64,000 nt of DNA from Flavobacteriales bacterium. Lineage in GTDB: Bacteria; Bacteroidota; Bacteroidia; Flavobacteriales_C; GCA-002722245. The notes beneath the pieces were generated by a model. It saw nothing but the letters and a program-made list of their open reading frames with translations, was not told the DNA's origin and did no database searches. Below, piece after piece: positions 4,285 through 41,544 of the stretch (positions are counted from its first letter, which is position 1; each line of letters starts with the position of its first letter). A program made the position numbers and the translations under genes. Where the stretch lies: contig JAYPYW010000001.1 in assembly GCA_038154685.1 (NCBI GenBank), positions 36,761 to 100,760 on the forward strand, written 5' to 3'.

Positions 4285-4610
4285 TTTACCGGAACAATTT
4301 CAGCCAATTCTAAGCGAAGAAAAGCAAACTCTAGTAGTTCAATACTTTCATTCATTTCCTTTCTATTTAATGCTATCATTAAATTAGAAACAGGTGTTTT
4401 CAGGAATATCTTATCGATTAATTTATTGGACTTGTCTCCATATTCTTCTAAAGTGGCCTTCAAAGCCCTTAAAAATATTTTTGCTTGATCCTTTTTGAAT
4501 TTTAATATAAGGGTTCCGATACCTATAATTAACTCATCAGATACTCCGCAGTACATTACATTACCTATTGAACTGGAAGAGATTAATTTATGACTACAAT
4601 CTTTCATCAT
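4281..4610 (-). CDS. Hypothetical small protein (109 aa), possibly the last gene of the MoxR cluster operon
   Basis: ORF only. It overlaps the stop of the convergent sensor gene by 4 nt. No recognizable motif. Confidence 0.3.
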   Translation of the reverse strand: MMKDCSHKLISSSSIGNVMYCGVSDELIIGIGTLILKFKKDQAKIFLRALKATLEEYGDKSNKLIDKIFLKTPVSNLMIALNRKEMNESIELLEFAFLRLELAEIVPVN

Positions 4611-4700
4611 TTTATTTTTAGTTTCTTTCTAAAAACAAATATGAAATATTCAAACACTTATTGCAATCGCTAAAAAAAGTGAAAAAATGATAACTATCTA

Positions 4701-5987: not shown

Positions 5988-6043
5988 AAGGAAAAACCAA
6001 TTGGTTTAATATAAGTTCGATATGAATTTATTTGTTTTCAAGA

Positions 6044-7159
6044 TTATCTAGGCACTTCAATTTTTTGTACAATTTCAGCAATTACATCCTCTGCTGAAAT
6101 CCCTTCCATTTCGGTTTCTGGCGTAAGAATTATTCTATGATTTAAAACAGGTTCACACACATATTGAATATCGTCCGGAGTAACAAAATCTCTTCCTCTA
6201 ACTGCAGCAGCTGTTTTAGCAGATCTTAAAATAGATAAGGAGGCTCTTGGAGATGCTCCTAAATATAAACGAGCATGATTTCTTGTTTCAGCGACTATTT
6301 TAGCAATGTATTCAATTAACTGATCCTCAATTTTCACCTCCTCAATTAAACCTTGAAACTCCTCAATATCAGCAGCTGTTAAAACCGAATTAATGTCATC
6401 GAAGGATACTTCCTTAATGTTGTTTTTAAACCTTTGTAAAATTGCAACCTCATCCTGAATTCCTGGATATTCTAGTTTAATTCTAAAAAGAAATCTATCC
6501 AATTGAGCTTCAGGCAAGCGATAAGTTCCTTCCTGCTCTATTGGGTTTTGGGTGGCCATTATAAAAAATGGAGGATCTAACTTAAAAGTTTCTCCATCGT
6601 TAGTTATTTGTCGCTCCTCCATTACCTCAAAAAGTGCAGCTTGAGTTTTAGCAGGCGCTCTGTTAATCTCATCAATCAACACGATATTCGAGAAAATAGG
6701 TCCTTTCTTATAAGTGAATTCCGATGTTTTAACATTAAAAACAGAAGTTCCCAGCACATCAGAAGGCATTAAATCTGGCGTAAACTGAATTCTTGAATAA
6801 TCTACCGAAAGGGTTTTAGAAACCACTTTAGACGTCATTGTTTTGGCAATTCCTGGAACCCCTTCTAGTAATACATGTCCACGAGAAAAAATTGCCAAAA
6901 TAATTTGATCAATTAGCTCATGCTGACCAATAATCATTTTCCTTGCTTCGGCTTTAACTTCTTCAATCTTATTTTGAAACTTTTGAAGCTTTAATCGTGA
7001 TTCAGGTACAAAAGGCTTTGGAGCTTCCTCAACCATCTCTTCTTTTGGATCAATTATATCCTCTGATGGCACTTGTTCACTATTTACCGGCGCTTCATTA
7101 GAAGTATTATTTACTTGCTCCTCTTGATTTTCTGACTGGTTATTTTCGTTTAATTCCAT
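6044..7159 (-). CDS. MoxR-family AAA+ ATPase (AAA_3) with acidic N-terminal extension
   Basis: Walker A reads GVPGIAKT (the GxPGxAKT MoxR form), followed by VLIDEINRAP and a C-terminal MoxR lid. About 60-aa E/Q/N-rich N-terminal tail. Confidence 0.9.
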   Translation of the reverse strand: MELNENNQSENQEEQVNNTSNEAPVNSEQVPSEDIIDPKEEMVEEAPKPFVPESRLKLQKFQNKIEEVKAEARKMIIGQHELIDQIILAIFSRGHVLLEGVPGIAKTMTSKVVSKTLSVDYSRIQFTPDLMPSDVLGTSVFNVKTSEFTYKKGPIFSNIVLIDEINRAPAKTQAALFEVMEERQITNDGETFKLDPPFFIMATQNPIEQEGTYRLPEAQLDRFLFRIKLEYPGIQDEVAILQRFKNNIKEVSFDDINSVLTAADIEEFQGLIEEVKIEDQLIEYIAKIVAETRNHARLYLGASPRASLSILRSAKTAAAVRGRDFVTPDDIQYVCEPVLNHRIILTPETEMEGISAEDVIAEIVQKIEVPR

Positions 7160-7161
7160 AT

Positions 7162-8466
7162 TTACTTCGCTTTTTTGTAAAAATCGTTTAATCTCTTGTA
7201 AAGGTTAACCAGGTATTCATCCGATACAGCGGTTATGTTTTTCCCTCCTTTAAAATGTTTTAATAAGGCTTTTATTTCTTCCTCTTCAACGCCAGATTTC
7301 TGAGCTAATCTTTTAGCATAAGATGCGTCATCATTGTAAGCAACATAGTACTTAGCACGCATCTTATTTTTAAAGATTTTCTCCATATGGACAATGAGCT
7401 TATTATGCTGATTTTGTTTTAAGTACAACCTTGCAATTGTTTCAGTAAATTCCAAGGACGAATTGTCGTTAGATTGTGTGGTTGGAATAATCTTCTGCTC
7501 TCTTTTCCCTCTGAAAATAATAAATAGAACTACTGCAAAAATGATTAATAAGTAAGCCCACCTTAATTGCATATTTGAAAGTAGGAAATTGAAAGAACTA
7601 TCACTCGATAGCCACCTTCCTGTGCTATGATTGCTATTACTGTGATCGATTTCCATTAATTCATTTTCATAAACTCCTGTTGTATAATTATCAAACAAAA
7701 TTGCACTGTTTGGAAAATATGAAAGCACTATTTCTACATATTCTCGCCCTTGATTTGTAGAAAGGTATTTATTGGTAAAAGCTTGAGGAACTGTATGTAA
7801 TAAGATCTTCCCACCACCGTATTCAAACTCAATGAAACATGGTCGGTATTTTGCTTTTCCTCTCACATTCCCATTTGTGTAAGAAATACCATAATTTACA
7901 TATCTCCAACGCCTAGTTTTCGGTTTGCCCTTTTCCCAGTTGATTAAGTTGTATTCATTAGGGAAGTTTTCGTTGTTAAAACTTAAAACAATTAAAGTAT
8001 CGCTGGTGTAATCAAAGTAATCGGCACTGTTATAATTAACAAATAAATTATCCAATAACCTTGCAGGCAAAAACTCTGCAGCAATAAAAACATTATTCCC
8101 GGCGTCTACAAAGTCAAGTAGATCCTGAACTTCAGACGGAAATAAATTCAAAGACTTCCCCACAAACATATAGGTTACCTCCTTTGCATCTAATTGTAAT
8201 TCTGTACTGTCAAAATATTCCTCTACTGAAACATCAATATCCTTAACAGTGTGATTTGGCAAGCCTTCTTGGAGTATCTCTCTAATAAAGTAGGTTCCGT
8301 AAGGATGTTTACTTTTCGAGTTATAATCTTTCTCCCAATTAATTGATTCAACTTTTCGGTCTGAAAGTTCCTTCGATTCTGCATCCTCATTCCCAACAAA
8401 ATATATCAACCCTCCCAGTCCGAAAACCAGAACAGCCATAATTAAGTATTTTACTGAGTTATTCAA
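7162..8466 (-). CDS. Membrane protein, DUF4350-like (N-terminal TM, second TM near residue 300)
   Basis: Topology and size (434 aa; TM helices at residues 9-25 and about 295-312) match the DUF4350 proteins that accompany MoxR/DUF58 in this conserved cluster. Family assignment is from memory of the cluster, not from a search. Confidence 0.5.
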   Translation of the reverse strand: MNNSVKYLIMAVLVFGLGGLIYFVGNEDAESKELSDRKVESINWEKDYNSKSKHPYGTYFIREILQEGLPNHTVKDIDVSVEEYFDSTELQLDAKEVTYMFVGKSLNLFPSEVQDLLDFVDAGNNVFIAAEFLPARLLDNLFVNYNSADYFDYTSDTLIVLSFNNENFPNEYNLINWEKGKPKTRRWRYVNYGISYTNGNVRGKAKYRPCFIEFEYGGGKILLHTVPQAFTNKYLSTNQGREYVEIVLSYFPNSAILFDNYTTGVYENELMEIDHSNSNHSTGRWLSSDSSFNFLLSNMQLRWAYLLIIFAVVLFIIFRGKREQKIIPTTQSNDNSSLEFTETIARLYLKQNQHNKLIVHMEKIFKNKMRAKYYVAYNDDASYAKRLAQKSGVEEEEIKALLKHFKGGKNITAVSDEYLVNLYKRLNDFYKKAK

Positions 8467-9465
8467 TTATTTAGTGATTGCTTCAATTAGTTTTTGAAAA
8501 TGCTTTTCCACCACTTCAAAATCGCTGGATCCAATTTCATATTTACCATACCAAATGAATTCGTAACTTTTAATGGCTTCCTTAAAATCAGCAAAGAAAG
8601 ATTGACCTTGAACTTCAATTTGGTAATGGTAATTCGTTTTCCTTTTTTTCCATTGGATAAAGCCTTTGTCGGATAATTCCTTGATCACCCAAACAAAATA
8701 AAGTCGTGTTGCACTTCGGAAATCATTATTTGATTTTGCAGCTAATATTTTCTTCTCCAATTCAGACAATTGTACCGCTTCAGGGTTCATGTCCTGGTCG
8801 TATAATATTTTATGGCCTTCTCCCTCAATTGGAGTTTTTGCAAATAACATATACCCAGCAAAACCAAGGATTCCGGCTATTAGAATAATTAAGAGTAATT
8901 TGAAAAAACTACCATTAAGGTTAGCATTAGACTGTTCATTGTACTTTTTTTCTTGTCGAGGATCACTTTTGCTTTTATCCTCTTTCCTTTTTAACCTACT
9001 TTTTTCAATAGCAGCTCGTCTGTTTTCATCCCTTTTGTATGAATTCCGTCTTTTAAATGCCTTTCTTTCGTACCTTCTTGAATCTGATTGAATACCATCA
9101 TTCGAATTTTTTTGCCCGCTTCCTCTATGATATTCTCTGGTGGTTATTGTTCCCGAAATGGAATCATATTCCCAAATAACATAAGTATCCCCCTTTTCAA
9201 CCCCATAACCTAATCCAAACTCGGAACTATCTCCCTCCAGGCGCTTTTGCTCCATTTCTTCTATTAAATCAACTTCTTTTTTAAGGCGTTCATATTCATC
9301 ATTTTTGAACGTCTTTTTCTCAACCACTTCATTATCCTCATTTAGGAAAAGAGGTAATTCTTCCTCTCCCTTTAAAAACAAAGAAGTGAACAAAAAGACG
9401 GCTATTGATATGAACCTAATAATCTCCCTCATCAGCTTGTTCGAAAAGATTATTTTTTGACCCAA
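8467..9465 (-). CDS. Membrane-anchored protein, DUF4129-like C-terminal domain, with charged coiled-coil middle region
   Basis: N-terminal hydrophobic segment and a mid TM helix (FFKLLLIILIAGILGFAGYMLF). A K/R/E-rich segment of about 80 aa. The C-terminal about 120 aa is taken as DUF4129 from its position in the cluster. Start is adjacent to the stop of the downstream gene. Confidence 0.45.
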   Translation of the reverse strand: MGQKIIFSNKLMREIIRFISIAVFLFTSLFLKGEEELPLFLNEDNEVVEKKTFKNDEYERLKKEVDLIEEMEQKRLEGDSSEFGLGYGVEKGDTYVIWEYDSISGTITTREYHRGSGQKNSNDGIQSDSRRYERKAFKRRNSYKRDENRRAAIEKSRLKRKEDKSKSDPRQEKKYNEQSNANLNGSFFKLLLIILIAGILGFAGYMLFAKTPIEGEGHKILYDQDMNPEAVQLSELEKKILAAKSNNDFRSATRLYFVWVIKELSDKGFIQWKKRKTNYHYQIEVQGQSFFADFKEAIKSYEFIWYGKYEIGSSDFEVVEKHFQKLIEAITK

Positions 9466-26586: not shown

Positions 26587-27870
26587 TTATAAAAGCATAT
26601 TTAAAGCACGCTTTAAAGCGGCAATAAATACATCTACTTCTTCTTTTGTATTATAAAATGCGAACGACGCTCTGGCAGTACCAGTCACATTACATCTATG
26701 CATTAATGGCTCAGTACAATGGTGTCCTGTTCTTACTGCCACACCTAATTGATCTAGGATTGTTCCCATATCATAATGGTGTGCCTTTTCATGAACAAAA
26801 CTTAATACTCCAGCCTTATTTTTTGCTGTTCCTACGATCCTGATTCCTTCAATCTGACTGATTTGTTCAGTGGCATATTCCAATAACTCATCTTCATGAG
26901 CATGAACAGCCTCCCAATCTAGCTCATTCAAATAATCAACCGCAGCTCCAAGTCCGATTCCACCGGCAATATTAGGCGTACCAGCTTCAAACTTATGTGG
27001 TAAATCGTTGTAAGTTGTTTTCTCAAAAGAAACGGTCTTAATCATGTCGCCACCACCTTGGTAAGGAGGTAACTTATCCAACCACTCTTTCTTTCCGTAA
27101 AGGATTCCAATTCCTGTTGGTCCAAACATTTTATGACCACTGAAAGCGTAGAATTCACAGTCTAGTTCCTGAACATCTACCTTCATGTGTGGAACACTTT
27201 GCGCACCGTCAAATAAAACTGGAATATCTAAAGCATGAGCAGCTTCAACGATTTCTTTTACTGGGTTGATTGTTCCTAAAGTATTAGAAACATGAGTGAT
27301 CGCAACCAACTTTGTTTTCTCAGACAAAAGCGCTTTAAATTCTTCTAGAATCAACTCACCCTCATCCGTAATTGGAGCAACCTTTAAAGTAGCTCCAGTA
27401 TACTCACAAGCCATTTGCCAAGGCACGATGTTAGAATGGTGCTCCATAGCTGAAATCACCACCTCATCACCTTCTTTTAAGATTCCTCTTGTAAAACCAT
27501 TAGCTACAAGATTAATCCCATCTGTTGTTCCCTTAGTGTAAATTACTTCTTCTTCTAAAGGCGCATTGATGTATGCCTGAATTTTTCTTCGAGCTTCCTC
27601 ATAAGCAGCAGTTGCCTCCTGACTTAAAGTATGAACTCCTCTATGGATATTAGAGTTCTCATCTTGGTAATACTGATTAATTCTATCAATTACTACCTGA
27701 GGTTTTTGAGCAGTTGCTCCATTGTCGAAATAAACCAAATCCTTCCCATTGACCTTTCTTTTCAAAGTAGGAAAGTCATTTCTTAAATCGACTATACTTT
27801 TTTGTTCCACCATAATCATAATGTCCGAAGACAATGGGGATTTATGCTTTCGAGTTAAAGTTTGCAGCAA
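26587..27870 (-). CDS. sufS: Cysteine desulfurase SufS (class V aminotransferase, group II)
   Basis: PLP Lys in [12 protein letters not shown]; active-site Cys in RTGHHCTEP. Confidence 0.9.
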
Positions 27871-29152
27871 TTAATTTGTCCGCGTATTCACGAACTGCTT
27901 CTACTTTAATATTATCTAAAACTTCACCAATAAATGCATCTAATAATACCTTCTGAGCAGTAGATTCTTTAATCCCTCTAGCTCTCAAGTAGAATAATGC
28001 TTCATCATCAAACTGACCGATTGTACAACCGTGGCTACACTTTACGTCATCTGCATAAATCTCTAATTGAGGTTTAGCGTTTGCCTTTGCATCATCACTT
28101 AATAATATGTTTGCATTACTTTGGAATGCATTGGTCTTTTGAGCGATTTTATTAACGTAAATCTTACCGTTGAAAATTGCAGTTGATTTATCGTTAACAA
28201 CCGTTTTGTATAATTCATTCGACTCACAATTTGGCTTTGCATGGTCAACAAAAGTTTGGTTATCCACATGAATATCTCCATTCAAACAAATTGCACCGTA
28301 AAGGTTCGCCTCTGAATTTGGTCCGTCAAGGACAATGTTCAGGTTATTTCTAATCAATTTCCCGTTTGCAGGAATTGTATTTATTGTGAAAGTTGAATCC
28401 TTTGCTTGAGTAGCGAAATCAGCACCAATATGGTACGTGTTTTCGTTCTCGTTTTGGATTTTATCTAACTGAACATGTGCGCCTTCAGCTACAACAACTT
28501 CATTGATTACATTGCTTAATGCCGTTGCAGTGTCAATTGTTTCATAGGTAACAATCACTTGTGCTTCAGCCAATTTCTCAGCAACAATTAAGTTACGTGG
28601 GTATGCAGCTACTAAATCACCATCAACCAAATTGATTACATGAACTGGCTTATCTAATTGTGCTTTTGCTTTTACGTAAACAAACGCTCCATCCTGAGAG
28701 AAAGCAGAGTTTAGGTTTACAAAGAACTGATCCTTAGCTCTTGTTTGGAAACCTAAATGAGGTTCAACTAATTTGATAAAATCCTTCTTCGCTTTGTTTA
28801 AGCTCGTTACGATGAAATCTCCATCCTTATCCTCAGCAACTTCTGAGAAATTAGGCTCAAAAAATCCGTTTACGAAAACCAAAACATAAGCATCAAGGTT
28901 AGCTATTTTGTGCGCGTTAACCTTTTCAGCAATAATGTTTGTAGCTGATTGAGGACGGAATTCAGTTTTCCCAACCTCTCTCAAGCTTGTATATTTCCAA
29001 TCTTCCAACTTGTTAGTTGGAAAATCTAATTCTTTCAGGTTTTTAAGCGCGAGCTCTCTAATCTTAATGAAAGTCTTTGCTTCATGACTGAAGTCTTGCC
29101 CTTCTTGGTTGATTAAAAACCTGTCTTTATCTGTTAATGTCAATGTAGCCAT
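27842..29152 (-). CDS. sufD: Fe-S cluster assembly protein SufD
   Basis: SufB/SufD family C-terminal beta-helix. Position between sufC and sufS. Overlaps sufS by 29 nt. Confidence 0.85.
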
Positions 29153-29161
29153 GGCTATATT

Positions 29162-29917
29162 TTATGCTTCTTCAAACTCCTTGATGATCCAGTCGTAACC
29201 TTTCTCTTCAAGTTCTAATGCTAACTCTTTAGTTCCAGTCTTAATGATCTGACCGTTGTATAGTACGTGTACAAAATCAGGAACGATGTAATCTAATAAT
29301 CTTTGGTAGTGCGTTACTACAACAAATGCATTATTCTCAGACTTTAATTCGTTAACTCCGTTTGCAACGATTCTTAAAGCATCGATATCTAATCCAGAAT
29401 CAGTCTCATCTAAAACTCCCAATTTTGGCTCTAACATTGCCATTTGGAAAATCTCGTTTCTTTTCTTCTCACCTCCTGAGAAACCTTCGTTAACTGATCT
29501 GTTTGCTAATTTTCCAGAAAGCTCAACTAATTGCTGCTTTTCCTTTAAAAGCTTCATGAATTCTTTAGTCTCCAAGTTTGGTAAACCTCGGTATTCTCTT
29601 ACTTCGTTAACTGCAGTTTTGATGAAATTAATGTTTGAAACACCTGGAATTTCAACTGGGTATTGAAACGCTAAGAAAACTCCTTCACCAGCTCTTTCTT
29701 CTGGAGCTAAATCTAATAAGTCTTTTCCGTCGAAATCAACTGATCCTCCAGTTACTTCATACTCTTCTCTACCAGCTAAAACTGATGCTAAAGTAGACTT
29801 ACCTGAACCGTTAGGTCCCATGATTGCGTGAACTTCTCCTGGTTTAACTTCTAAGTTTAAACCTTTTAAGATTTGCTTTCCGTCGATTTCGGCCTCTAAA
29901 CCGTTTATTTTTAACAT
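29162..29917 (-). CDS. sufC: Fe-S cluster assembly ATPase SufC
   Basis: ABC ATPase with GPNGSGKST, LSGGEKKR and the SufC Q-loop/D-loop. Confidence 0.95.
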   Translation of the reverse strand: MLKINGLEAEIDGKQILKGLNLEVKPGEVHAIMGPNGSGKSTLASVLAGREEYEVTGGSVDFDGKDLLDLAPEERAGEGVFLAFQYPVEIPGVSNINFIKTAVNEVREYRGLPNLETKEFMKLLKEKQQLVELSGKLANRSVNEGFSGGEKKRNEIFQMAMLEPKLGVLDETDSGLDIDALRIVANGVNELKSENNAFVVVTHYQRLLDYIVPDFVHVLYNGQIIKTGTKELALELEEKGYDWIIKEFEEA

Positions 29918-29944
29918 TTTAAAATGTATTTATTGCTTAATTAA

Positions 29945-31390
29945 TTATCCTACTGATCCTTCTAAACTGATTTCTAATAATTTCTTCGCTTCAATTGCGA
30001 ACTCCATTGGCATTTGATCCATAACGTTCTTACAGAAACCGTTTACGATTAATCCAATTGCTTTATCAGTTTTAATTCCTCTTTGATTACAATAGAAAAG
30101 TTGATCTTCTCCAATTTTGGAAGTTGTTGCTTCGTGCTCAACTTTTGCTCCCTTATTTTGGCACTCAATGTATGGGAATGTATGAGCTCCACATTTTGCA
30201 CCGATTAGTAAAGAGTCACATTGACTAAAGTTTCTTGCGTTTTCAGCTCCTTTAGCAATCTTAACCAAACCTCTGTATGAGTTTTGAGATTTACCAGCCG
30301 AAATACCTTTTGAAACAATAGTACTCTTTGTATTCTTTCCTAAGTGAATCATTTTAGTACCAGTATCCGCTTGCTGCATGTTATTTGTAACAGCAACTGA
30401 GAAAAATTCTCCAATTGAGTTATCCCCTTTAAGAATACAAGATGGGTATTTCCAAGTAACTGCAGAACCTGTTTCAACCTGCGTCCAAGAAATCTTAGCG
30501 CTATCAAAACAAACTCCTCTTTTAGTTACGAAGTTGTAAATACCTCCTCTTCCTTTTTTATCTCCAGGATACCAGTTTTGAACTGTTGAGTATTTAACTT
30601 CTGCGTTATCTAAAGCAACGATTTCTACTACTGCAGCGTGCAACTGATTTTCATCTCTTTGGGGAGCAGTACATCCTTCTAAGTAAGAAACATAAGATCC
30701 TTCATCAGCAACAATTAATGTACGCTCGAACTGACCAGTGTTTGCTTCATTAATTCTGAAGTAAGTCGATAATTCCATTGGACATCTAACTCCTTTTGGA
30801 ATGTAACAGAATGAACCATCAGAGAAAACCGCTGAGTTTAATGCCGAGTAGAAGTTATCTGCTTGAGGAACTACCGAACCAATGTATTTCTTAACTAATT
30901 CCGGGTGCTCTTGAACAGCCTCCGAGAAAGAACAGAAAATAATCCCAAGTTCACTTAATTTATCTTTAAAAGTAGTGGCAACAGAAACAGAATCCATTAC
31001 AACATCAACAGCTACACCAGCTAAAGCTTTTTGCTCTTCGATTGGAACTCCTAATCTTTCAAAAGTCTTCAAAATTTCAGGATCAACCTCATCCAAGCTT
31101 TCATATTGCTTTTTAGGCTTCGGTGCTGCGTAATAAATAATGTCTTGGAAATCTGGCTTGTCGTATGAAACGTGAGCCCATTCTGGCTCTTCCATTTTCT
31201 CCCACATTCTAAATGCCTTCAATCTCCAATCTAATAACCATTCCGGCTCATTCTTTTTGTCAGAAATGAATCGAATAGTTTCTTCTGTTAAACCCTTTTG
31301 GGCTAATTCAGATTCAATATCAGAAACAAACCCGTACTTATATTCCCCGGTTGTTGCTTCTTCAATTATTTTATCCTCGTCCATGCTCAT
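29945..31390 (-). CDS. sufB: Fe-S cluster assembly scaffold SufB
   Basis: Highly conserved SufB pattern throughout the 481 aa. Confidence 0.95.
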
Positions 31391-31408
31391 AATAGAACCT
31401 CTTCTTTT

Positions 31409-31735
31409 TTAAACTGCAAAACTTTCCCCGCATCCACATGTGCGAGAAGCGTTAGGATTATTAAAACTGAATCCTTTACCATTAAGTCCTCCTTCGTATT
31501 CCAAAGTAGTACCAGCTAGGTATAGTAAACTCTTCTTTTCAACAACAACTTTTACCTCATTGTCTTCGAACTCCTGATCGTTATCTTGTAATTCGGTATC
31601 GAAACTTAAATCATATGATAAACCAGAACATCCGCCGCTTTTTACACCAACTCTAATAAAGCTGTCAGCAGGCATCTCTTCAAGCCTTTTAAGCTTTGCT
31701 ACCTGGTCTCTTGCGTTATCTGAAACTTTAATCAT
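31409..31735 (-). CDS. sufA: HesB/IscA-family A-type Fe-S carrier (SufA/ErpA)
   Basis: 108 aa; GCSGLSY...C-terminal CGCGESF three-Cys motif. Confidence 0.85.
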   Translation of the reverse strand: MIKVSDNARDQVAKLKRLEEMPADSFIRVGVKSGGCSGLSYDLSFDTELQDNDQEFEDNEVKVVVEKKSLLYLAGTTLEYEGGLNGKGFSFNNPNASRTCGCGESFAV

Positions 31736-31890: not shown

Positions 31891-34800
31891 TTGTTTTTTT
31901 CTAATAGTATACGCACCTTTGCCAATATGCGTGGTTTGAAGTATGTCTTACTATTATTTGTCCTTCTCTGTTTTTCGCCAGCGAAAGCTACAGATATAGA
32001 TTTACTCAAATGTGAGCAGTTCACTATTGATGATGGGCTTCCTCAAAGTTTTATTGAGAAGGTTTTCCAGGACGATAAAGGTTTTCTTTGGATTGCGACT
32101 CAAGATGGAATATCAAAATTTAATGGGTATCAATTCGAAAACTTCTTTTCAAACCCGTTTGATACAAGTACTATTGCTAGTAATTATGTGATTAATATCA
32201 ATAACTGGAATGGTGATTCGGTGTTATTCACTACTAGTATTGGACTTTCTATTTTCGATCCTGCTTCGAAAACATTTTCTAACAATGCCATTAGTTTAGA
32301 GCATAATGAAGTTGGAAATATTTCATCTTCTGTTATGCTATCTAAAGACTCCATATTTATTGGTGGAGGAAAAGGGCTATTCCAATTTGAATCCCTAAAA
32401 AACGGATATGATCTTAATCTTTTGGTTAAAAGAAATATTTCAAACACTGTATTTTTTAATCAAAAACTAACCTATAGCTCCGAAAACAAGATTTACCAGA
32501 TTATAAACGGTGAAGAAAAATTAATCCAAACATTTGATTCAAACATTCATGCTTTATTTGTTTCGAGGAATAGTTTATATGTTTCGCTTCAAAATGACTT
32601 TTTCAAACTTAAAAACAACTACGAACCAGACACAAGCTTTTGGGTTGATCACCGGGTAAACGATTTTATTATTGAAGATGGAGTTTATTGGCTTGCAACT
32701 CAAAATAATGGTGTTGTTGTTTGTGATCAGAACGTTTCGAATTCAGCCCTAAAACACCACAGCATAACTTTTTTAAGTAAAAGAATAAGCTCAATATACA
32801 AGGATAATTTTGGAGTTATTTGGATTGGGACCAACAAGGGATTAAATAAGATTGATCCTTCCAAAAAAGAGTTTTTGCAATACAAAGCATCCGCTTATCA
32901 CCCAGCATCAACCGACAATTGTTGGTCTTTCTTTGAAAACGATTCACTTTTCTTTTCTGGTTATGATAATGGTTTACAAATCAAAAAGAAAGGCTCTTCC
33001 GAATCAAAATGGATTGAATTCGATGGATTAATTCTTGATATCAACGCTGTTGATGAAAAAACGATCCTTGGAACTTCTTCTGGAGTTTATGAACTAAAAA
33101 TTGAAAATGATTCCATTTTTATTGGAGATACAAATCTCATCGATCTTGGAATAAACGGTAAACAAGATATTGTTTTCAAGTTCAAAAAATTTAAAAACAA
33201 ATTACTTGTCGGAAGTAACAACTACCTTTCTATATATGATGAAAATCTAACCCTTGTGAATAGATGGAATATTAAGGGTGTTCGAGATTTTACAATTTTT
33301 AATAACCAAATATACTTTACTGCATCTCCAACAGGAATTTACCAGCTTTACAATATTGAGGATTCAGAACTCACTAACTTTAAAAAAATAAACCTTCCAG
33401 AAGTTGAGCATTTACTGGGTTTATCGATCGCTAGTGGTAATGATCATATTTGGTTAGGTTTATATGGTGGAGGGTTAATTAAATACGATTACAAAAAGAA
33501 GAGTACTCAGCATTTCTCTACCCAAAATGGATTACCCAATAATACCATTTACTCCATTATTAATCACAAAAATTCCCTCTGGTTAAGTACGAATGGTGGT
33601 TTATCTAAACTAGACTTGAAAACAGAGGAATTTCAAAACTTTAATAATGCAGACGGAGTTCAAAGTTTAGAATTTAACTCTGGCGCAGGATTCAAAGGTA
33701 AAAATGGTAATATTTACTTCGGGGGTATTGATGGTTATAACATTGTTAATCCTAGGGTGGAAAACAGGAACTCATTCCCACCGAAAGTATACATCTCATC
33801 ATTCATGTACAAAGGGGAAAACTTATTACAAGTTGATGACAACAACAGTAACTATGATAAAGTATCCAAAACAATTACAATTCCCCACAGGAAGAATAGC
33901 TTTAAAATATTTGTGGATGCATTGCACTACTCATCACCAAATGACAATATTTTTAAAACAAAACTGGAAGGTTGGCAAAACGAATGGGTAATTAGTAAAG
34001 GAAAACCTGTTTTCCAATTTAGCAATCTAAAAGACGGAGAGTACTTTTTTGTTGTAAACGCAGCGAATTCCGATGGTGTATGGAGTTATAATGAGCAAAG
34101 GATAAAAATAATTATCAAACCCCCATTCTACTTAACTTGGTGGTTCATATCGGGTACTTCAGTAATTGTGATTGGTTTACTTGCTTTCTTAATTTATTCA
34201 AGAATAAACAGATCAAAATTCCAACGTGAAATATTAGAGCGTAAAGTAAGAGACCGCACTAGAGAAGTTGAAAATCAAAAGAAAAAACTAGAAGAAAAGA
34301 ACAAGGAACTAGAATACGAAAAAAACAAGGAAGAAGAAGTCCTTTTAAATGTTCTTCCTAGAGAAACGGCAAAAGAACTAGTATCCACTGGAAAATCTAC
34401 TCCCAAGAGTTACAAGATGGCAACAGTAATGTTCGCCGACTTTAAAAACTTCACCAAAATCACCGAAAATCTTGGTCCAAAAGAGTTAGTTGCAGAGTTG
34501 GATGATTCGTTTGCAAAGTTTGATGATATAGTTGGAAAACTAAACATCGAGAAAATCAAAACTTCCGGTGATGCTTACATGTGTGTTGGAGGAGTTCCTA
34601 TTAGAAACCAAACCAATCCTGTTGATTGTGTTTTAGCGGCTTTCCAATTCCAAAAGTATATGCACCAAAAACGTGAAATTAGGGAAGGAACTGGAAAACC
34701 TCAATGGCATTTAAGAATTGGAATGCATACCGGAGCTTTAGTTGCTGGAGTAGTAGGTAAAAAGAAATTCCTATATGATGTTTGGGGAGATACTGTAAAC

Positions 34801-35643
34801 ACTGCTGCACGAATGGAAACAAGTGCAGATGAAGGTAAGATCAACGTTTCTGGGACCACCTACGAATACATTAAAGATTACTTTGATTGTGAGTATAGAG
34901 GTAAATTACCTGTAAAAAATAAGGGCGCCATCGATATGTATTACGTAAACAGAATTAAGGCAGGTTTATGTAAAGATGAAGAAGGTCAAACACCGAATAG
35001 GAAATTCTTTGAACTACTCAACTTCAAGGTTTATACTCAGCAAAATTTCCATAACGTTCGAGATTACTTCCTAGACTTATTAGAGCAAAACGAGTTTGTT
35101 TCTAAACTCAAATACCATGGTCCCCACCATACACTAGATGTAATGGAAGCTGCCGAAAGAATTGGTCGTGCAGAAGGATTGGGAGAAGAAGAGCTAATGT
35201 TGGTTAAAGTCGCTGCCTTATTCCACGATAGTGGCTTCCTTAATAAATACCAAAATAACGAGCCTGAAGGTGCTAAATTGGCAAAGAGGGAACTTCCTCG
35301 TTATGGATTTACGGATGCTCAGGTTGAAATTGTAGAAGGAATGATTTTAGCTACTAAAATCCCTCAAGAGCCTAAAAATCATCTCGAGGAAATCCTTTGT
35401 GATGCAGATTTAGATTACTTAGGTAGAGACAAGGAAGAGTTTGATAAAATCAGTTCTTCACTTGCTCAGGAATTAATTGATATGAAGATTCTTAAATCCC
35501 TTGATGCCTGGGATCCAATACAGGTTAAATTTCTTGAGGCTCATCAATACTTCACCAAAACTTGTATTGAAACCCGAAGGCCAGGCAAAATTGAAAGATT
35601 GAGAGAAATTAGAGACCGACTGCAAGGACCTAATGAGGAGTAA
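31891..35643 (+). CDS. Membrane sensor protein: beta-propeller/Y_Y_Y periplasmic domain, TM, coiled coil, class III adenylate cyclase domain, C-terminal HD phosphohydrolase domain
   Basis: N-terminal hydrophobic segment. W.GT repeats and a Y_Y_Y region. TM LTWWFISGTSVIVIGLLAFLIYS, then a K/E coiled coil. Cyclase motifs VMFADFKNFT, KIKTSGDAYMCVGG, YDVWGDTVNTAARME, where the K/D specificity residues indicate ATP. HD motif HHTLDV...LFHDSG...DADLDYLG. Confidence 0.8.
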   Translation: MFFSNSIRTFANMRGLKYVLLLFVLLCFSPAKATDIDLLKCEQFTIDDGLPQSFIEKVFQDDKGFLWIATQDGISKFNGYQFENFFSNPFDTSTIASNYVININNWNGDSVLFTTSIGLSIFDPASKTFSNNAISLEHNEVGNISSSVMLSKDSIFIGGGKGLFQFESLKNGYDLNLLVKRNISNTVFFNQKLTYSSENKIYQIINGEEKLIQTFDSNIHALFVSRNSLYVSLQNDFFKLKNNYEPDTSFWVDHRVNDFIIEDGVYWLATQNNGVVVCDQNVSNSALKHHSITFLSKRISSIYKDNFGVIWIGTNKGLNKIDPSKKEFLQYKASAYHPASTDNCWSFFENDSLFFSGYDNGLQIKKKGSSESKWIEFDGLILDINAVDEKTILGTSSGVYELKIENDSIFIGDTNLIDLGINGKQDIVFKFKKFKNKLLVGSNNYLSIYDENLTLVNRWNIKGVRDFTIFNNQIYFTASPTGIYQLYNIEDSELTNFKKINLPEVEHLLGLSIASGNDHIWLGLYGGGLIKYDYKKKSTQHFSTQNGLPNNTIYSIINHKNSLWLSTNGGLSKLDLKTEEFQNFNNADGVQSLEFNSGAGFKGKNGNIYFGGIDGYNIVNPRVENRNSFPPKVYISSFMYKGENLLQVDDNNSNYDKVSKTITIPHRKNSFKIFVDALHYSSPNDNIFKTKLEGWQNEWVISKGKPVFQFSNLKDGEYFFVVNAANSDGVWSYNEQRIKIIIKPPFYLTWWFISGTSVIVIGLLAFLIYSRINRSKFQREILERKVRDRTREVENQKKKLEEKNKELEYEKNKEEEVLLNVLPRETAKELVSTGKSTPKSYKMATVMFADFKNFTKITENLGPKELVAELDDSFAKFDDIVGKLNIEKIKTSGDAYMCVGGVPIRNQTNPVDCVLAAFQFQKYMHQKREIREGTGKPQWHLRIGMHTGALVAGVVGKKKFLYDVWGDTVNTAARMETSADEGKINVSGTTYEYIKDYFDCEYRGKLPVKNKGAIDMYYVNRIKAGLCKDEEGQTPNRKFFELLNFKVYTQQNFHNVRDYFLDLLEQNEFVSKLKYHGPHHTLDVMEAAERIGRAEGLGEEELMLVKVAALFHDSGFLNKYQNNEPEGAKLAKRELPRYGFTDAQVEIVEGMILATKIPQEPKNHLEEILCDADLDYLGRDKEEFDKISSSLAQELIDMKILKSLDAWDPIQVKFLEAHQYFTKTCIETRRPGKIERLREIRDRLQGPNEE

Positions 35644-35664: not shown

Positions 35665-35699
35665 TAAAAAAGCCCCGCATAAGCGGAGCTTTCTTTTTA
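35665..35699. terminator. Bidirectional hairpin terminator between sensor gene (+) and XRE gene (-)
   Basis: AGCCCCGC-ATAA-GCGGAGCT stem with one mismatch, flanked by A5 upstream and TTCTTTTT downstream. Confidence 0.5.
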
Positions 35700-35737: not shown

Positions 35738-35965
35738 TTACACACTCACGATCTCAGACATCTTAACTTTTAATGCTTCCGAAATAATGTAGAGTGTATA
35801 AACATTTGCACTAACCTTTGCATTTTCAATTTTTTCCATGTGCTGCCTGTCCATTCCACACGCTCTAGCAAGCTGAGATTGATTTAAACCTTTCCCTTTT
35901 CTAATTCTTTTGATGTTTTCCCCAATTTTTACTGCCAAGTCCGTTTTTTCTAATTGCGCTTCCAT
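35738..35965 (-). CDS. XRE-family HTH transcriptional regulator
   Basis: 75 aa; HTH_3 pattern IRKGKGLNQSQLARACGMDRQHMEKIE. Confidence 0.8.
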   Translation of the reverse strand: MEAQLEKTDLAVKIGENIKRIRKGKGLNQSQLARACGMDRQHMEKIENAKVSANVYTLYIISEALKVKMSEIVSV

Positions 35966-36068: not shown

Positions 36069-36665
36069 TTAAAGATTCATAGTTTCCTTACCTAGCTCAG
36101 GTTTTGAATGCAAGGCTATATTAATTTCTTTCGCCGTCATTATTTGATTTAAATGGTGTTCCGAATGTTTTATCGCAAAGTAAATTAACTGATATACATC
36201 CAATTTAATACCTGATAACACCTTCATATTCGCTAAATAATTATTGGCATAAAAAGCTGGTGCTTCCCTTACAAGTTTCATTAATTTTAAACTTTGAACA
36301 GCTAATTTGAATTCCAATTCTTGACAACTAAAAAATAATGGTGTAGTAAACTCTGGCAGTGTTTTCATTTTAAAAACACTTACGTTTAACATTGTTTCCA
36401 CTATTTTCAAATCAGATTCAGTGTATTCACTGTCTTCATTAACTAAACCTTCATGTAATAATTGAATGTGGTGCTCTACTTTTTCAATGATATATTTATT
36501 AACCAGATAAATATGCTCTGCGTGTCTTTTACCTGTCCATTGACTACCATCCGAAATACTGTCGTTATCATTAATAAGGCCCATTACCTTATTTAACTTT
36601 TTAGCTAAAACCTGACAGTTTGCTTTCAATAGAACTTGAGTTCTAGCGAATTCTGAATTTTCCAT
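36069..36665 (-). CDS. Hypothetical protein (possibly DinB/YfiT-like helical bundle), co-oriented with XRE regulator
   Basis: 198 aa, His-rich helical segments (HAEHIY..., VEHHIQLLHEG). Weak family guess. Confidence 0.35.
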   Translation of the reverse strand: MENSEFARTQVLLKANCQVLAKKLNKVMGLINDNDSISDGSQWTGKRHAEHIYLVNKYIIEKVEHHIQLLHEGLVNEDSEYTESDLKIVETMLNVSVFKMKTLPEFTTPLFFSCQELEFKLAVQSLKLMKLVREAPAFYANNYLANMKVLSGIKLDVYQLIYFAIKHSEHHLNQIMTAKEINIALHSKPELGKETMNL

Positions 36666-37000: not shown

Positions 37001-38527
37001 TCACCTAACTATAAAAGATTTATTTACTACTCCATTATCACCACTCAATTGGGTAATATAGATGCCCGGTTTGAATGAACTTAAATTAACAGCGTAATTC
37101 TTTGCATTTACAATATGATTATTCATAACGATTTCACCATTCATATTGAATATTGAAATGCCTTCAATCTCTTTTTCGCAAACAAAATCAACAAATCCAT
37201 CTCTTTGAAAAACATAAACTTCTGATGCTTTATTATCCGGCGAAACCACAACTACTTCTGAGTAACCAAAAGTTCCATCAAAATCAATTTGTTTTAATCT
37301 GTAAAATGTTTTTTCGTGAGGAGCATAATCATCAACAAAAGTATAATCTATCATTTGCACTGCATTTCCAGCTCCTGATTCCCAGCCTATTTCTTCCCAA
37401 TTAAGCCCATCAATACTTCTTTGGATTTCAAATCCATCGTTATTTATTTCGGCTCCAGTTTTCCATTTTAAAACATTCTTACCCTCAAGATGTTCAGCCA
37501 TAAAACTCACCAAATCCACCGGTAATGCAGTGGTTGCAGTAATCCTAAAAACACTTTCTAACATTCCAAACATATCCGCTGCGCCAGAAGCTGAAAATTC
37601 GCTGGTAGAGGATAAAATTGTACCTGTACGATATTGAGCTCCTCCTGAGATACCATCTTGTTCAGAAAATCCAGTATATGTTCCACTCCCATTTGTAAGA
37701 GATGAATTATTAATGAGTGTTTGATTTGTTCCTGCAGATATCGTTCTGTCTCCAGAAGCTGCAGCCAAACTAAAAATTGCGTTATTTCCATCATTTGGTG
37801 CAGCAGAAGCGGTAGATATAGAATTACAATTACTACAATTAGCATTGCTCACATTACTCATCCCTGCGACATTTTCAAACATTAAAGCCCCAAAAATGGC
37901 ATCATCTCCAGCATTTGACGGGTTATTAAAATTAGCTGTTATATTAAAAGAGTTTGTACCGGTAGGTATATTCGCCTCCAACGTACCGTAAACCATAAGC
38001 TCTAAACTCATATCTGCATCCGATTCTGTATCGATTGCGTCATATTCATAAATCCATTGTGAACTTAAATGAGATAACGTGGTTGTAGAAATTTCAACCG
38101 TTGGCACACTACCTCCTGTTGGCGCATTACTTGCCCAGTTATCACCAGTGGCTCCAGGCGCATGATCTCTTTCTACTATCATAAAGAAAATCAACACCCT
38201 ATCCGACCCTGCTGTAGTAGTATATGATAAACTAGGAACGCCCCCTGCGCCACTCCCTGATGCCGTTGCTACATCGTAACTCCCCGATAAGTATGAAACC
38301 TGCCCTACTAACATCATGGGAAATAATAATATTGCCCAAATCCCCCTCATAATTCTATTAACGAGATTTTTAAAATAAGGTTTTACATGTAACGAAATAC
38401 GTTTTTTACCGTAGTAAATAGCTAAAAGGTTTTTAGTTATGAGAAATTTAAGGATTATAGGGGTAGTATTAGTGGGGTTGACACTAATTTCTTGTGAAAA
38501 AGACTTCGTTGAAGAAGATTTTGACAT
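37001..38527 (-). CDS. Secreted protein with type IX secretion system C-terminal sorting domain (T9SS cargo); Ser/Thr/Gly/Asn-rich central region
   Basis: C-terminal about 80 aa (GISIFNMNGEIV...PGIYITQLSGDNGVVNKSFIVR) matches the Por_Secre_tail pattern. Preceded by a conserved about 95-aa domain shared with the gene at 39967-41544. Confidence 0.7.
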   Translation of the reverse strand: MSKSSSTKSFSQEISVNPTNTTPIILKFLITKNLLAIYYGKKRISLHVKPYFKNLVNRIMRGIWAILLFPMMLVGQVSYLSGSYDVATASGSGAGGVPSLSYTTTAGSDRVLIFFMIVERDHAPGATGDNWASNAPTGGSVPTVEISTTTLSHLSSQWIYEYDAIDTESDADMSLELMVYGTLEANIPTGTNSFNITANFNNPSNAGDDAIFGALMFENVAGMSNVSNANCSNCNSISTASAAPNDGNNAIFSLAAASGDRTISAGTNQTLINNSSLTNGSGTYTGFSEQDGISGGAQYRTGTILSSTSEFSASGAADMFGMLESVFRITATTALPVDLVSFMAEHLEGKNVLKWKTGAEINNDGFEIQRSIDGLNWEEIGWESGAGNAVQMIDYTFVDDYAPHEKTFYRLKQIDFDGTFGYSEVVVVSPDNKASEVYVFQRDGFVDFVCEKEIEGISIFNMNGEIVMNNHIVNAKNYAVNLSSFKPGIYITQLSGDNGVVNKSFIVR

Positions 38528-39966: not shown

Positions 39967-41544
39967 ATGAAAAACTTTAGTAAAATTTTATTCCCACTTC
40001 TTACGGGACTATTTTTCTTAAATATTAAATCAAGTACAGCACAGTGTTCGCAAGATCCTTGGGTTGCTTGTTTTCCTTCATGTACTTATGTTACAGGAGA
40101 TACAGTTTCTTACAGCAGTCAGGACTGGGTTGTAGGGGCAAATACAACATGGTCTTACCTCGCACCTGGTACAGATGGCGGAGGAACATGGACCGCTATT
40201 CCTGGTGCTTGTGCAGGAACTACAACTCCAATAGTATCTCCTACTGAAATAAGAGGAACCTATTGTACGACTACTTTCGGAATCGGTAATATTACTCGTA
40301 ATGGAGGAGCTGCAATTACGGCAAGAGGGCATGTTTTTAGCACCTCTCCAAATCCAACATTAACAGACGGAGTTTTAGTAGATGCCGGAAATGGTGTAGG
40401 AGATGAGTTTGAAGGATTAATTCCTGATTTAGCACCCTCAACTACGTACTACGTGCGAACATATGCTACAAACAGTCAAGGAACCAGATACGGTACCCAG
40501 GCAACACTAACTACTAAAGATGCAGTTGATTGTGCTGATTGTAATTTAGCCTGTGATGAAACGGATTCAAAATGGTTAGATCCAACCTCAGCAGAGTGGT
40601 CTACAGCTCCATTTGCAACAATCAACACAACCGATACAGTTTGTATTACACAAGATGTGACAATTGGTGGAACGATTACTTTATATGGTATGTTCAAGAT
40701 TTGTAACGGAGCAACAGTTACATTAAGTGGATCAATTGATGTACAAACTGCAACACCTACAAACCCCAATTATGAAGGACAAGTTGTATACGAAGGATGT
40801 AACGAAATTTTTGACGGTACTGGATCTTATACTGGCGAGTACTTAGTTATTGAAGCTAAAAACGATCCACTTCAAATGATCAGCTATTGCGAAACATGTA
40901 ATGAAAATGACCAATCACAGTTCTTCAAGCCAACTGTTTCTACTGCTTATTGGGCAGCTACTTGTAGACCAACTTCTACTGTTTTAACACCGCTTCCAGT
41001 TGAGCTAACTTCGTTTAGTGGACAATTAACAGAAAACGGTGTTGAGCTAAACTGGGAAACTGGTGCCGAAATAAACAATAGCCATTTCAATGTGCAAGTC
41101 TCTTACGATGGAGTTAATTGGAAAACTATTGGTGTTGTTCAGGGAGCTGGAAACTCAACGGTTAACCTAAATTACTTTTTCTTAGATAACCAAGAAGGAA
41201 CTGGTGTACAATACTACAGATTAGAGCAAGTTGATTTTGATGGAACTAATGCTTTTTCAAACGTAATTCATGTATCATTCAATGAAAAGGACATGCCAAA
41301 AGCTTTTATTGCTTTTCAAAATTCAGAAAGAAAAGTTGAAATACAAGCTAAATTTAGCGGTATGGGAGAGGCTTATTTAATGGATACTCGAGGAAGAATA
41401 GTTGATACCAAAACATTTATTAGTACAAGTAAATCTGGTACTCAATTCGAATTTGACTCTACCAATTTATCAGAGGGTGTTTACTTTGTAAAAATCAAAT
41501 CTGGTAACGCTCTACTTGGTGAGAAAGTTCAAATTACGAAGTAA
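39967..41544 (+). CDS. Secreted Cys-rich protein with T9SS C-terminal sorting domain (T9SS cargo)
   Basis: Signal peptide MKNFSKILFPLLTGLFFLNIKSSTA. C-terminal Por_Secre_tail-like domain (...LSEGVYFVKIKSGNALLGEKVQITK). Shares the LPVELTSF...NWETGAEINN...YRLEQVDFDGT domain with the gene at 37001-38527. Confidence 0.7.
   Translation: MKNFSKILFPLLTGLFFLNIKSSTAQCSQDPWVACFPSCTYVTGDTVSYSSQDWVVGANTTWSYLAPGTDGGGTWTAIPGACAGTTTPIVSPTEIRGTYCTTTFGIGNITRNGGAAITARGHVFSTSPNPTLTDGVLVDAGNGVGDEFEGLIPDLAPSTTYYVRTYATNSQGTRYGTQATLTTKDAVDCADCNLACDETDSKWLDPTSAEWSTAPFATINTTDTVCITQDVTIGGTITLYGMFKICNGATVTLSGSIDVQTATPTNPNYEGQVVYEGCNEIFDGTGSYTGEYLVIEAKNDPLQMISYCETCNENDQSQFFKPTVSTAYWAATCRPTSTVLTPLPVELTSFSGQLTENGVELNWETGAEINNSHFNVQVSYDGVNWKTIGVVQGAGNSTVNLNYFFLDNQEGTGVQYYRLEQVDFDGTNAFSNVIHVSFNEKDMPKAFIAFQNSERKVEIQAKFSGMGEAYLMDTRGRIVDTKTFISTSKSGTQFEFDSTNLSEGVYFVKIKSGNALLGEKVQITK

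Follow-up and report, generated by a model that had tools for sequence, protein, structure and literature searches.

A sensor-linked adenylate cyclase with a compact class-I-phosphodiesterase-like HD domain in a Flavobacteriales bacterium: a computational prediction

Can a single bacterial receptor carry both the enzyme that makes cyclic AMP (cAMP) and the enzyme that destroys it? The question is raised by a gene in a 64,000-nucleotide stretch of a Flavobacteriales bacterium (assembly GCA_038154685.1, contig JAYPYW010000001.1, positions 36,761 to 100,760 of the forward strand), which we call the window and whose G+C content is about 35%. An open reading frame (ORF) at 31891..35643 (+), 1250 aa when read from a TTG codon, encloses the span 34336..35500, for which an earlier note on this DNA had described one polypeptide with an adenylate cyclase (AC) and an HD phosphohydrolase domain behind a periplasmic propeller sensor. 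ORF calling, Pfam and hydropathy confirm that description, and all the motifs quoted then are present (VMFADF, KIKTSGDAYM, YDVWGDTVNTAARME, YHGPHHTLDV, LFHDSGF and CDADLDYLG). The same note had raised the HD domain as a possible cyclic nucleoside monophosphate (cNMP) phosphodiesterase (PDE), a possibility that now has substantial support from fold, residue alignment, independent fusions and gene neighbourhood. In the reading that we prefer, with a probability of about 0.6, the protein is a ligand-gated membrane receptor in which the cyclase makes cAMP and the HD domain hydrolyses it. All the evidence is computational, and the whole account is put forward as a testable prediction.

The likely start codon is the ATG at 31927, the first in frame, giving a product of 1238 aa; this exact 1238-aa sequence is present in a public protein collection, and relatives have equal length. 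Residue numbers nevertheless follow the TTG numbering throughout, counted from 31891. The span 34336..35500 corresponds to residues 816-1204 and takes in the end of the signalling helix, the entire cyclase domain and the larger part of the HD domain, whose end lies farther on at about 35622. The gene and its parts are as follows.

31927..35643 (+): whole gene for the sensor-cyclase-HD protein (ORF call; 1238-aa product publicly deposited)
31927..31992 (+): N-terminal hydrophobic signal peptide or anchor (MRGLKYVLLLFVLLCFSPAKA...), Kyte-Doolittle windows >1.6 at residues 10-36
31993..34125 (+): periplasmic sensor, Reg_prop beta-propeller repeats and then Y_Y_Y (Pfam; phmmer matches to periplasmic domains of hybrid two-component system (HTCS) sensors)
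33928..34119 (+): Y_Y_Y domain, residues 680-743 (Pfam, E 1e-12)
34135..34206 (+): lone transmembrane (TM) helix (TWWFISGTSVIVIGLLAFLIYS), hydropathy maximum 1.85 at residues 749-772
34207..34404 (+): charged coiled-coil or signalling helix resembling a cyclase transducer (…EEVLLNVLPRETAKELV…), aligning with the helix ahead of AC9 C2
34405..34950 (+): class IIIa nucleotidyl cyclase catalytic domain (PF00211, E 2e-48; PDB matches; conservation)
34999..35622 (+): all-helical C-terminal HD domain, predicted cNMP phosphodiesterase (H1076, H1080, H1112, D1113, T1155, D1173, E1194, Q1211, F1214)

Hydropathy reveals two hydrophobic segments only, the N-terminal signal or anchor and the TM helix at about residues 749-772, which places the propeller and Y_Y_Y domains in the periplasm and the cyclase and HD domains in the cytoplasm. 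When the N-terminal 700 residues were compared with the PDB by phmmer, they matched BT4663 (4a2l, E 9e-56), 3v9f (E 1e-39) and 3ott (E 3e-27). The sensor is of the HTCS type, with Reg_prop repeats and Y_Y_Y followed by a TM helix; the remainder of an HTCS was not found, as a Pfam scan of the protein gave no match to HisKA, HATPase_c, Response_reg or HTH_AraC. Pfam also returned a weak match to the C-terminal part of HNOBA at residues 789-830, and an NCBIfam scan of the protein added nothing specific. The segment EEVLLNVLPRETAKELV sits in the place taken in class IIIa/b cyclases by the 'cyclase transducer element'. Full-length relatives with 71% and 67% identity occur in a Flavobacteriaceae and a Flavobacteriales metagenome-assembled genome (MAG), respectively, and metagenomic copies from marine and TARA samples have HD domains 85-94% identical to that of the window protein; the source is accordingly an uncultured marine member of the Flavobacteriales. 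Short homologues of about 515 aa begin with the same PxxxxWWF-TM segment.

The cyclase domain matches Guanylate_cyc (PF00211) at residues 839-1020 with 164.8 bits against a cutoff of 21.9. Its closest relatives in the PDB are AC9 (C2), AC8 and AC5 (E 1e-56 to 1e-49), followed by the mycobacterial class IIIa Cya enzymes 4p2m, 7yz9 and 5o5k (E about 1e-40). The six canonical residues are complete, with D850 and D894 for the metals, K890 and D963 for the substrate, and N970 and R974 for the transition state; we assigned these positions through the alignment with AC9 and the numbering of Rv1625c. Across 53 non-identical fused homologues the first five never vary; R974 is retained in 49 and replaced by Gln in three and His in one. 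The specificity pair, K890 in KIKTSGD and D963 in YDVWGD, is found in 53 of 53, and ATP is predicted as the substrate because of it. In this respect the earlier note, which had taken a Lys/Asp pair as indicative of ATP specificity, is borne out, and both catalytic Asp residues, whose loss it had named as the mark of a pseudo-cyclase, are in place. A pseudo-cyclase was rejected on the completeness and conservation just described; judged by these residues, the domain is a complete class III enzyme of predicted adenylate type, class IIIa.

Two residues cannot prove specificity, and the four homologues with Gln or His for the transition-state Arg leave some room for a domain that makes no cAMP, either as a guanylate or other nucleotidyl cyclase or as an inactive receptor-like module. 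With all six residues present, the pair being Lys/Asp, and with adenylate cyclases as the best solved matches (E 1e-56 to 1e-40), we regard this as very improbable, the least probable of the alternatives considered here. The four homologues in which R974 is replaced retain everything else, and may be reduced-activity cyclases in which the HD activity dominates.

What, then, does the HD domain do? It matches the generic HD model PF01966 at residues 1080-1173 with 29.4 bits, above the cutoff of 22, and with 33.2 bits in a scan of the domain by itself; the metal-ligand motif H...HD...D of the superfamily is present as the invariant residues H1080, H1112, D1113 and D1173. Standalone 'HD domain-containing proteins' of about 195 aa with 45-54% identity are found in Dyadobacter, Larkinella, Pontibacter and Chitinophagaceae. 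An alignment of 66 members, mostly standalone (A1), was the basis of the structural model and of the profiles. AlphaFold on A1 gave an all-helical HD model (predicted local distance difference test, pLDDT, 94.4; predicted TM-score, pTM, 0.89), which was used in place of a discarded single-sequence AlphaFold2 model of the HD region (pLDDT 48.6). An exhaustive profile search retrieved 8,567 cluster representatives (50% identity) at E<=1e-3, 3,699 at <=1e-10 and 1,736 at <=1e-30.

The domain was compared with the other HD classes in turn. The sole match of the HD region to the PDB by phmmer is an HD-GYP protein at a non-significant E of 0.26, and the invariants of the 66-member alignment include neither a GYP motif nor an H..HH pair, in agreement with the earlier statement that the domain is not of the HD-GYP type. 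Similarity to the hydrolase domains of Rel, SpoT, Mesh1 or small alarmone hydrolases (SAH) was likewise not found, so that the RelA/SpoT-like identity which the earlier note had named as fatal to its proposal did not materialise. The generic Pfam HD model matches 63 of the 66 members, and five of the 66 weakly match HDOD. Since inactive HD-like domains such as HDOD serve regulation, these weak matches lend something to the idea that the HD domain has no catalytic role and would act in dimerisation, scaffolding or nucleotide binding to tune the cyclase, for example through product feedback. Against this, neither the metal ligands nor the putative general-acid His vary in the 53 fused or the 66 mostly standalone members, which would not be expected of a degenerate domain, and the family is also widespread as an independent protein of about 195 aa; we consider a non-catalytic role quite improbable.

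The most informative comparison is with the class I PDEs. A homologue search with PDE4D returned solely vertebrate PDE4D at 93-100% identity, which was unusable for a diverse profile. We assembled the catalytic domains of PDE4D, 5A, 10A, 9A and 7A (profile A2) and verified each sequence by comparison with PDB chains; that of PDE4D agreed at all 335 residues, and the others aligned ungapped over their full length at 2.25-2.34 bits per residue. In profile-profile comparison (hhalign), A1 and A2 align over 174-180 columns with a probability of 78-81% and E-values of 1.2e-5 to 1.8e-5, against 0.33 and 0.14 for reversed-sequence controls. Individual PDEs score E 0.1-0.7 against the HD-family profile, and hhalign of the family with PDE4D alone is weak (E 0.04). 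Twelve column pairs are invariant on both sides, and in 11 of the 12 the residue is identical. Residues of the window protein pair with those of PDE4D2 as listed below; the roles given are those generally assigned to these residues, in part after PMC8177086.

H1076 with H160: general acid
H1080 with H164: metal ligand
H1112 with H200: metal ligand
D1113 with D201: metal ligand
G1115 with G206
L1135 with L241
T1155 with T271
D1173 with D318: metal ligand
E1194 with E339
Q1211 with Q369: purine-recognising 'glutamine switch'
F1214 with F372: clamp Phe

The catalytic core of a class I PDE, i.e., the general-acid His and the four metal ligands, is thus present and invariant in both families, the position of D318 being ambiguous in one of the hhalign runs. 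Towards the C-terminus, Q1211-V-K-F1214 pairs with Q369-V-G-F372 in three alignments, a sequence-profile match at the same 78-81% probability. Locally, YHGPHHTLDV stands against YHNNIHAADV, ILATK against LATD, and IQVKFLE against SQVGFID. The HD domain shares the fold of the PDE catalytic domain, and we describe it as a putative compact class-I-PDE-like HD domain.

A second group of HD proteins has to be weighed against this. The HD-family profile also matches 2pq7 (E 5.8e-6) and BH2835/3dto (E 0.005), in the N-terminal half only. One alternative is a nucleotide pyrophosphohydrolase or nucleotidase of the YpgQ/YedJ type, acting on NTPs, dNTPs or NMPs and not on the cyclic nucleotide, for instance to trim the local pool of substrate or to remove what the cyclase leaves as by-products. 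Beyond about profile position 127 the sequence likeness to 2pq7 and 3dto is lost, and it does not reach the C-terminal Gln/Phe helix, which does align to the PDE profile. Moreover, these proteins have an Arg after the first metal His (HIRRV in 3dto, HTFRV in 2pq7) that is not conserved in the family; the window protein reads HTLDV, with Leu and Asp, and PDE4 and PDE7 read HAADV, where the YpgQ-type Arg is absent as well. Nor does this alternative account for the cNMP-binding domains that are repeatedly fused or adjacent to the family, as described below. Finally, hydrolysis of cAMP and cGMP has been reported for plant HD proteins that are themselves YpgQ-like (PMC8431786). We consider a YpgQ-type function unlikely, while regarding it as the foremost of the alternatives.

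The genomic context couples the family to cyclic mononucleotides in several ways. The cyclase-HD architecture is that of a large family and is not unique to the window. A query with the cyclase and HD module retrieved 7,489 proteins, the best 120 of which cover 61-100% of the query at 46-80% identity; among those 120, most come from Bacteroidota MAGs (Vicingaceae, Marinifilaceae, Labilibaculum, Saprospiraceae). In those 120 the module itself aligns at 46-64% identity over about 98% of its length, and the set of domains and motifs seen in the protein is far beyond chance. We also annotated 80 further metagenomic loci with our own hidden Markov models (HMMs), for a total of 90 loci and 785,385 bp. 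The 80 loci contain 92 HD-family ORFs, and in 61 of these a cyclase is part of the same protein. The complete non-identical fusions number 45, including 33 of 1220-1332 aa with the full sensor architecture and nine of 511-537 aa with a TM segment only. Viewed from the cyclase side, the 785,385 bp hold 68 cyclase ORFs, and all but one are either HD-fused (61) or within 161 bp of an HD gene (6), the last being a frameshift fragment of a fusion; none lies elsewhere.

Standalone HD genes tell a similar story. Among six on long contigs, five lie beside cyclase or cNMP genes and the sixth is within a his operon; three have a response-regulator- or GAF-cyclase gene immediately ahead of them in the same orientation, and four adjoin a gene of cNMP-binding or Crp type. 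In the metagenomic loci, 10 of the 18 standalone HD loci with usable flanks have a cyclase and/or cNMP-binding gene within two genes. Fusions with cyclases take the forms sensor-cyclase-HD, TM-cyclase-HD, TPR-cyclase-HD, cyclase-AAA-TPR-HD, HD-cyclase (the reversed order) and HD-PAS-cyclase, and there are further fusions of the types HD-cNMP_binding, HD-cNMP_binding-SpoIIE and HD-Usp (universal stress protein); where named, the genomes with alternative architectures are Bacteroidetes or Bacteroidia MAGs. That the HD domain has repeatedly and independently been joined to cyclases, on either side of them, and to domains that bind cNMPs is hard to explain unless its substrate or ligand is a cyclic mononucleotide.

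Several features of individual loci were recorded alongside these counts. At L019, a sensor-cyclase-HD gene (2728..6636, +) is followed 1.3 kb downstream by a 194-aa HD paralogue (7984..8565, +), with a Usp gene between them. The fused gene of L065 is read as two overlapping ORFs, 2759..5692 (978 aa) and 5590..6642 (+) (351 aa), which is probably a frameshift or an assembly error. In Cytophagales-like genomes, MFS/HEAT-repeat proteins of about 1075-1105 aa with a terminal cNMP-binding domain adjoin standalone HD genes (L001, 5683..8916; L003, 5578..8892; L076, 6555..9776; all on the minus strand), and in L002, L005 and L090 this form is split into a protein of about 890-920 aa and a cNMP-binding protein of about 150 aa. 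A DUF4920 gene lies directly upstream of the standalone HD gene in L067 (5390..5860), L072 (5166..5687) and L088 (5366..5866), with a MORN-repeat/caspase (Peptidase_C14) gene just beyond it in two of these three loci. Not every cyclase beside a standalone HD gene has the Lys/Asp pair: it is Gln/Cys in L004 (3166..4842), Met/Asp in L059 (42..1943) and Lys/Thr in L001 and L076, and some of these partners may make a different cyclic nucleotide.

A number of observations weigh against a cAMP phosphodiesterase in this position. The window protein has no match to PDEase_I (PF00233) at E up to 1 in Pfam, and four of the 66 family members match it weakly, the best at E 0.0072. The class I signature (PROSITE PS00126), H-D-[LIVMFY]-x-H-x-[AG]-x(2)-[NQ]-x-[LIVMFY], is not found: the window protein reads HDSGFLNKYQNN (HDSGFLNKYQ), with Ser in third place and no His at +4, and the site coincides with a 3-residue deletion relative to the PDEs in the A1/A2 alignment. 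The PDE residue His204 and the 'ENHH' histidines are missing from the HD domain. The putative equivalence of the Gln and Phe is that of a moderate-probability profile alignment (78-81%) with a five-sequence PDE profile. Eight of the 18 standalone loci have no cyclase or cNMP neighbour. As to effectors, a Pfam scan found no cNMP-binding or CRP-type protein among ten Crp-sized ORFs of the window. A first cNMP-binding HMM had converged on a narrow subfamily; the broader one that replaced it added just a Crp-like gene in L005/L006 (one place) and found nothing in the window or beside fused genes. Because the HD domain, at about 210 aa, is some 120 residues shorter than a PDE catalytic domain and lacks the HDxxHxG signature, His204 and ENHH, we do not count it among the class I PDEs.

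The fusions themselves can be read in another way. HD-cNMP_binding proteins could equally be output enzymes that are regulated by a cNMP and act on another substrate, and HD-cNMP_binding-SpoIIE is likewise compatible with a cNMP-regulated hydrolase. The HD domain would then hydrolyse a different messenger (cGMP, a 2',3'-cNMP, a cyclic dinucleotide or an alarmone), with cAMP going up as the other goes down, and would be an output of the pathway instead of its sink. HD enzymes act on many nucleotides (PMC8177086), and neighbouring cyclases with pairs other than Lys/Asp (Q/C in L004, M/D in L059) fit such a scheme. We think it unlikely too, ranking it second among the alternatives, and keep hydrolysis of cAMP by the HD domain as the preferred reading.

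Under that reading, the protein would work as a dimeric single-pass membrane receptor, whose periplasmic double-propeller/Y_Y_Y module would be of the glycan-fragment-binding kind used by Bacteroides HTCS. Binding of the ligand would reposition the TM helices of the dimer, and relay through the signalling helix would activate the head-to-tail cyclase dimer; a scissor-like model of transmembrane signalling has been reported for BT4663 (PMC8534201). The class IIIa adenylate cyclase would make 3',5'-cAMP from ATP, and the adjacent HD domain would hydrolyse 3',5'-cAMP to 5'-AMP. The resulting signal would be local, transient and tied to continued stimulation. Alternatively, the cyclase and HD activities might be reciprocally switched, as in bifunctional GGDEF-EAL or Rel enzymes.

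Several known systems share parts of this design. One is CAPE (combined AC with PDE), found in streptophytes such as Marchantia polymorpha, likewise a class III AC and an HD-superfamily PDE in one polypeptide (PMC5159850, PMC8115329), for which both activities have been demonstrated in liverworts (PMC5159850). CAPE differs in being eukaryotic, in having its PDE at the N-terminus as a canonical class I domain of about 330 aa, and in lacking a periplasmic sensor, whereas in the window protein the cyclase precedes an HD domain that fails the class I signature and whose PDE function is predicted. In contrast to the eukaryotic class I PDEs (PDE1-11, PF00233), the HD family is bacterial, mostly from Bacteroidota. 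YpgQ, a (d)NTP pyrophosphohydrolase, BH2835, YedJ, 2pq7 and the plant proteins AtCN-PDE1 and BDPDE1 (PMC8431786, PMC8177086) have one or more Arg after the metal His; the C-terminal half of this group is not detectably similar in sequence to the HD family, and none of its members is fused to a cyclase. Bacteroides HTCS sensors such as BT4663 (4a2l/4a2m) have the same Reg_prop double propeller and Y_Y_Y followed by one TM helix, but their output is a histidine kinase, receiver and AraC DNA-binding domain instead of a cyclase and an HD domain, and no polysaccharide-utilisation genes were noted beside the window gene. Mycobacterial Cya (Rv1625c-type) and mammalian membrane ACs, also of class IIIa, share the catalytic sequence, the Lys/Asp pair and the preceding helical transducer segment; they have 6-TM or 12-TM anchors and are without a propeller sensor or a C-terminal HD domain. 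The bifunctional GGDEF-EAL and GGDEF-HD-GYP proteins of cyclic di-GMP signalling follow the same logic, with the synthesis and hydrolysis domains for one messenger in one sensor protein.

The architecture has been seen by automated annotation: IMG carries the label 'class 3 adenylate cyclase/HD superfamily phosphodiesterase', and '.../predicted metal-dependent HD superfamily phosphohydrolase' is also in automated use. In a literature collection that lacks most subscription-journal papers, we found no publication on the bacterial cyclase-HD fusion or on COG4339, and essentially nothing relevant on cAMP signalling in Bacteroidota. What our analysis adds is the link of the HD domain to class I PDEs at the level of residues and fold, a quantified coupling to cyclases and cNMP-binding domains, and the identity of the sensor as HTCS-type.

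Turnover of cAMP in bacteria is generally assigned to PDEs of classes II and III (CpdA, Rv0805 and CpdP-type enzymes), and class I PDEs of the HD type are regarded as eukaryotic. Against this background a broader proposal may be made, which we hold tentatively and with slightly less than even confidence: that the HD family of about 200 aa is an unrecognised, widespread bacterial class of 3',5'-cAMP PDE, a minimal prokaryotic sister of the class I PDEs with a Gln-switch/Phe-clamp pocket. It would be the standard cAMP 'off' enzyme of Bacteroidota, free-standing in operons with cyclases or cNMP-binding proteins, or built into ligand-gated make-and-break receptor cyclases with HTCS-type glycan-sensor domains. 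If the family does hydrolyse cAMP, it would be a fourth and very common type of bacterial PDE and a plausible prokaryotic relative for the catalytic core of the eukaryotic class I enzymes, and cAMP signalling in Bacteroidota would be opened to direct experiment. The fusion would be a natural bifunctional enzyme, like GGDEF-EAL proteins and plant CAPE, and a model for the coordination of synthesis and degradation within one receptor dimer, and the glycan-sensor module of Bacteroides HTCS regulators would have been rewired to a second-messenger output.

The surroundings of the gene in the window comprise the following features.

27842..31735 (-): suf-like Fe-S assembly operon, divergent from the cyclase gene at a distance of about 190 bp and conserved in five loci
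35666..35695 (no strand): G+C-rich hairpin with a 13-bp stem flanked by A/T runs, between the cyclase and HTH genes (pattern match only)
35738..35965 (-): gene for a 75-aa XRE-type helix-turn-helix (HTH) protein, convergent to the cyclase gene (ORF; a homologous neighbour matches HTH_3 at E 3e-9)

The small HTH gene holds the same position in eight loci of the window's clade, and could be a local transcriptional partner of the cyclase gene. A DinB-family gene (36069..36665) is another recurrent neighbour, found in seven loci of the clade. The hairpin is probably a bidirectional terminator, to judge from its sequence; a scan for sigma-70 promoters performed no better than on shuffled sequences. 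Within the suf-like operon, a SufA/IscA-like protein of 108 aa and then SufB, SufC and SufD were recognised by eye from the translations.

In other clades, a ferritin gene directly precedes the fused gene in the same orientation in 20 loci; tandem-Usp genes, mostly convergent downstream, are neighbours in 15, RNase R in 11 and DUF2490 in nine. A theme of iron or oxidative stress recurs around fused genes (suf, ferritin), and together with the Usp genes these neighbours suggest links to stress and iron physiology. Tandem-Usp genes were noted by fused or HD genes at 6769..7629 (-) in L042, 6693..7520 (-) in L019, 5172..5969 in L064 and 6589..7452 in L066. In three loci a standalone HD gene, too, is flanked by Usp genes, and the HD-Usp fusion mentioned above is P0465. 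As mycobacterial Usp proteins bind cAMP (PMC11107214), the Usp proteins are candidate cAMP receptors, which we regard as a lead and not as a result.

Further along the window, two predicted secreted proteins, encoded at 37001..38527 (-) and 39967..41544 (+), were seen by eye to share a region of about 90 residues near the C-terminus, LPV[DE]L.SF...W.T..E.NN..F...DG..W..IG...GAGN...Y.F.D...YRL.Q.DFDG, with a further C-terminal segment after it.

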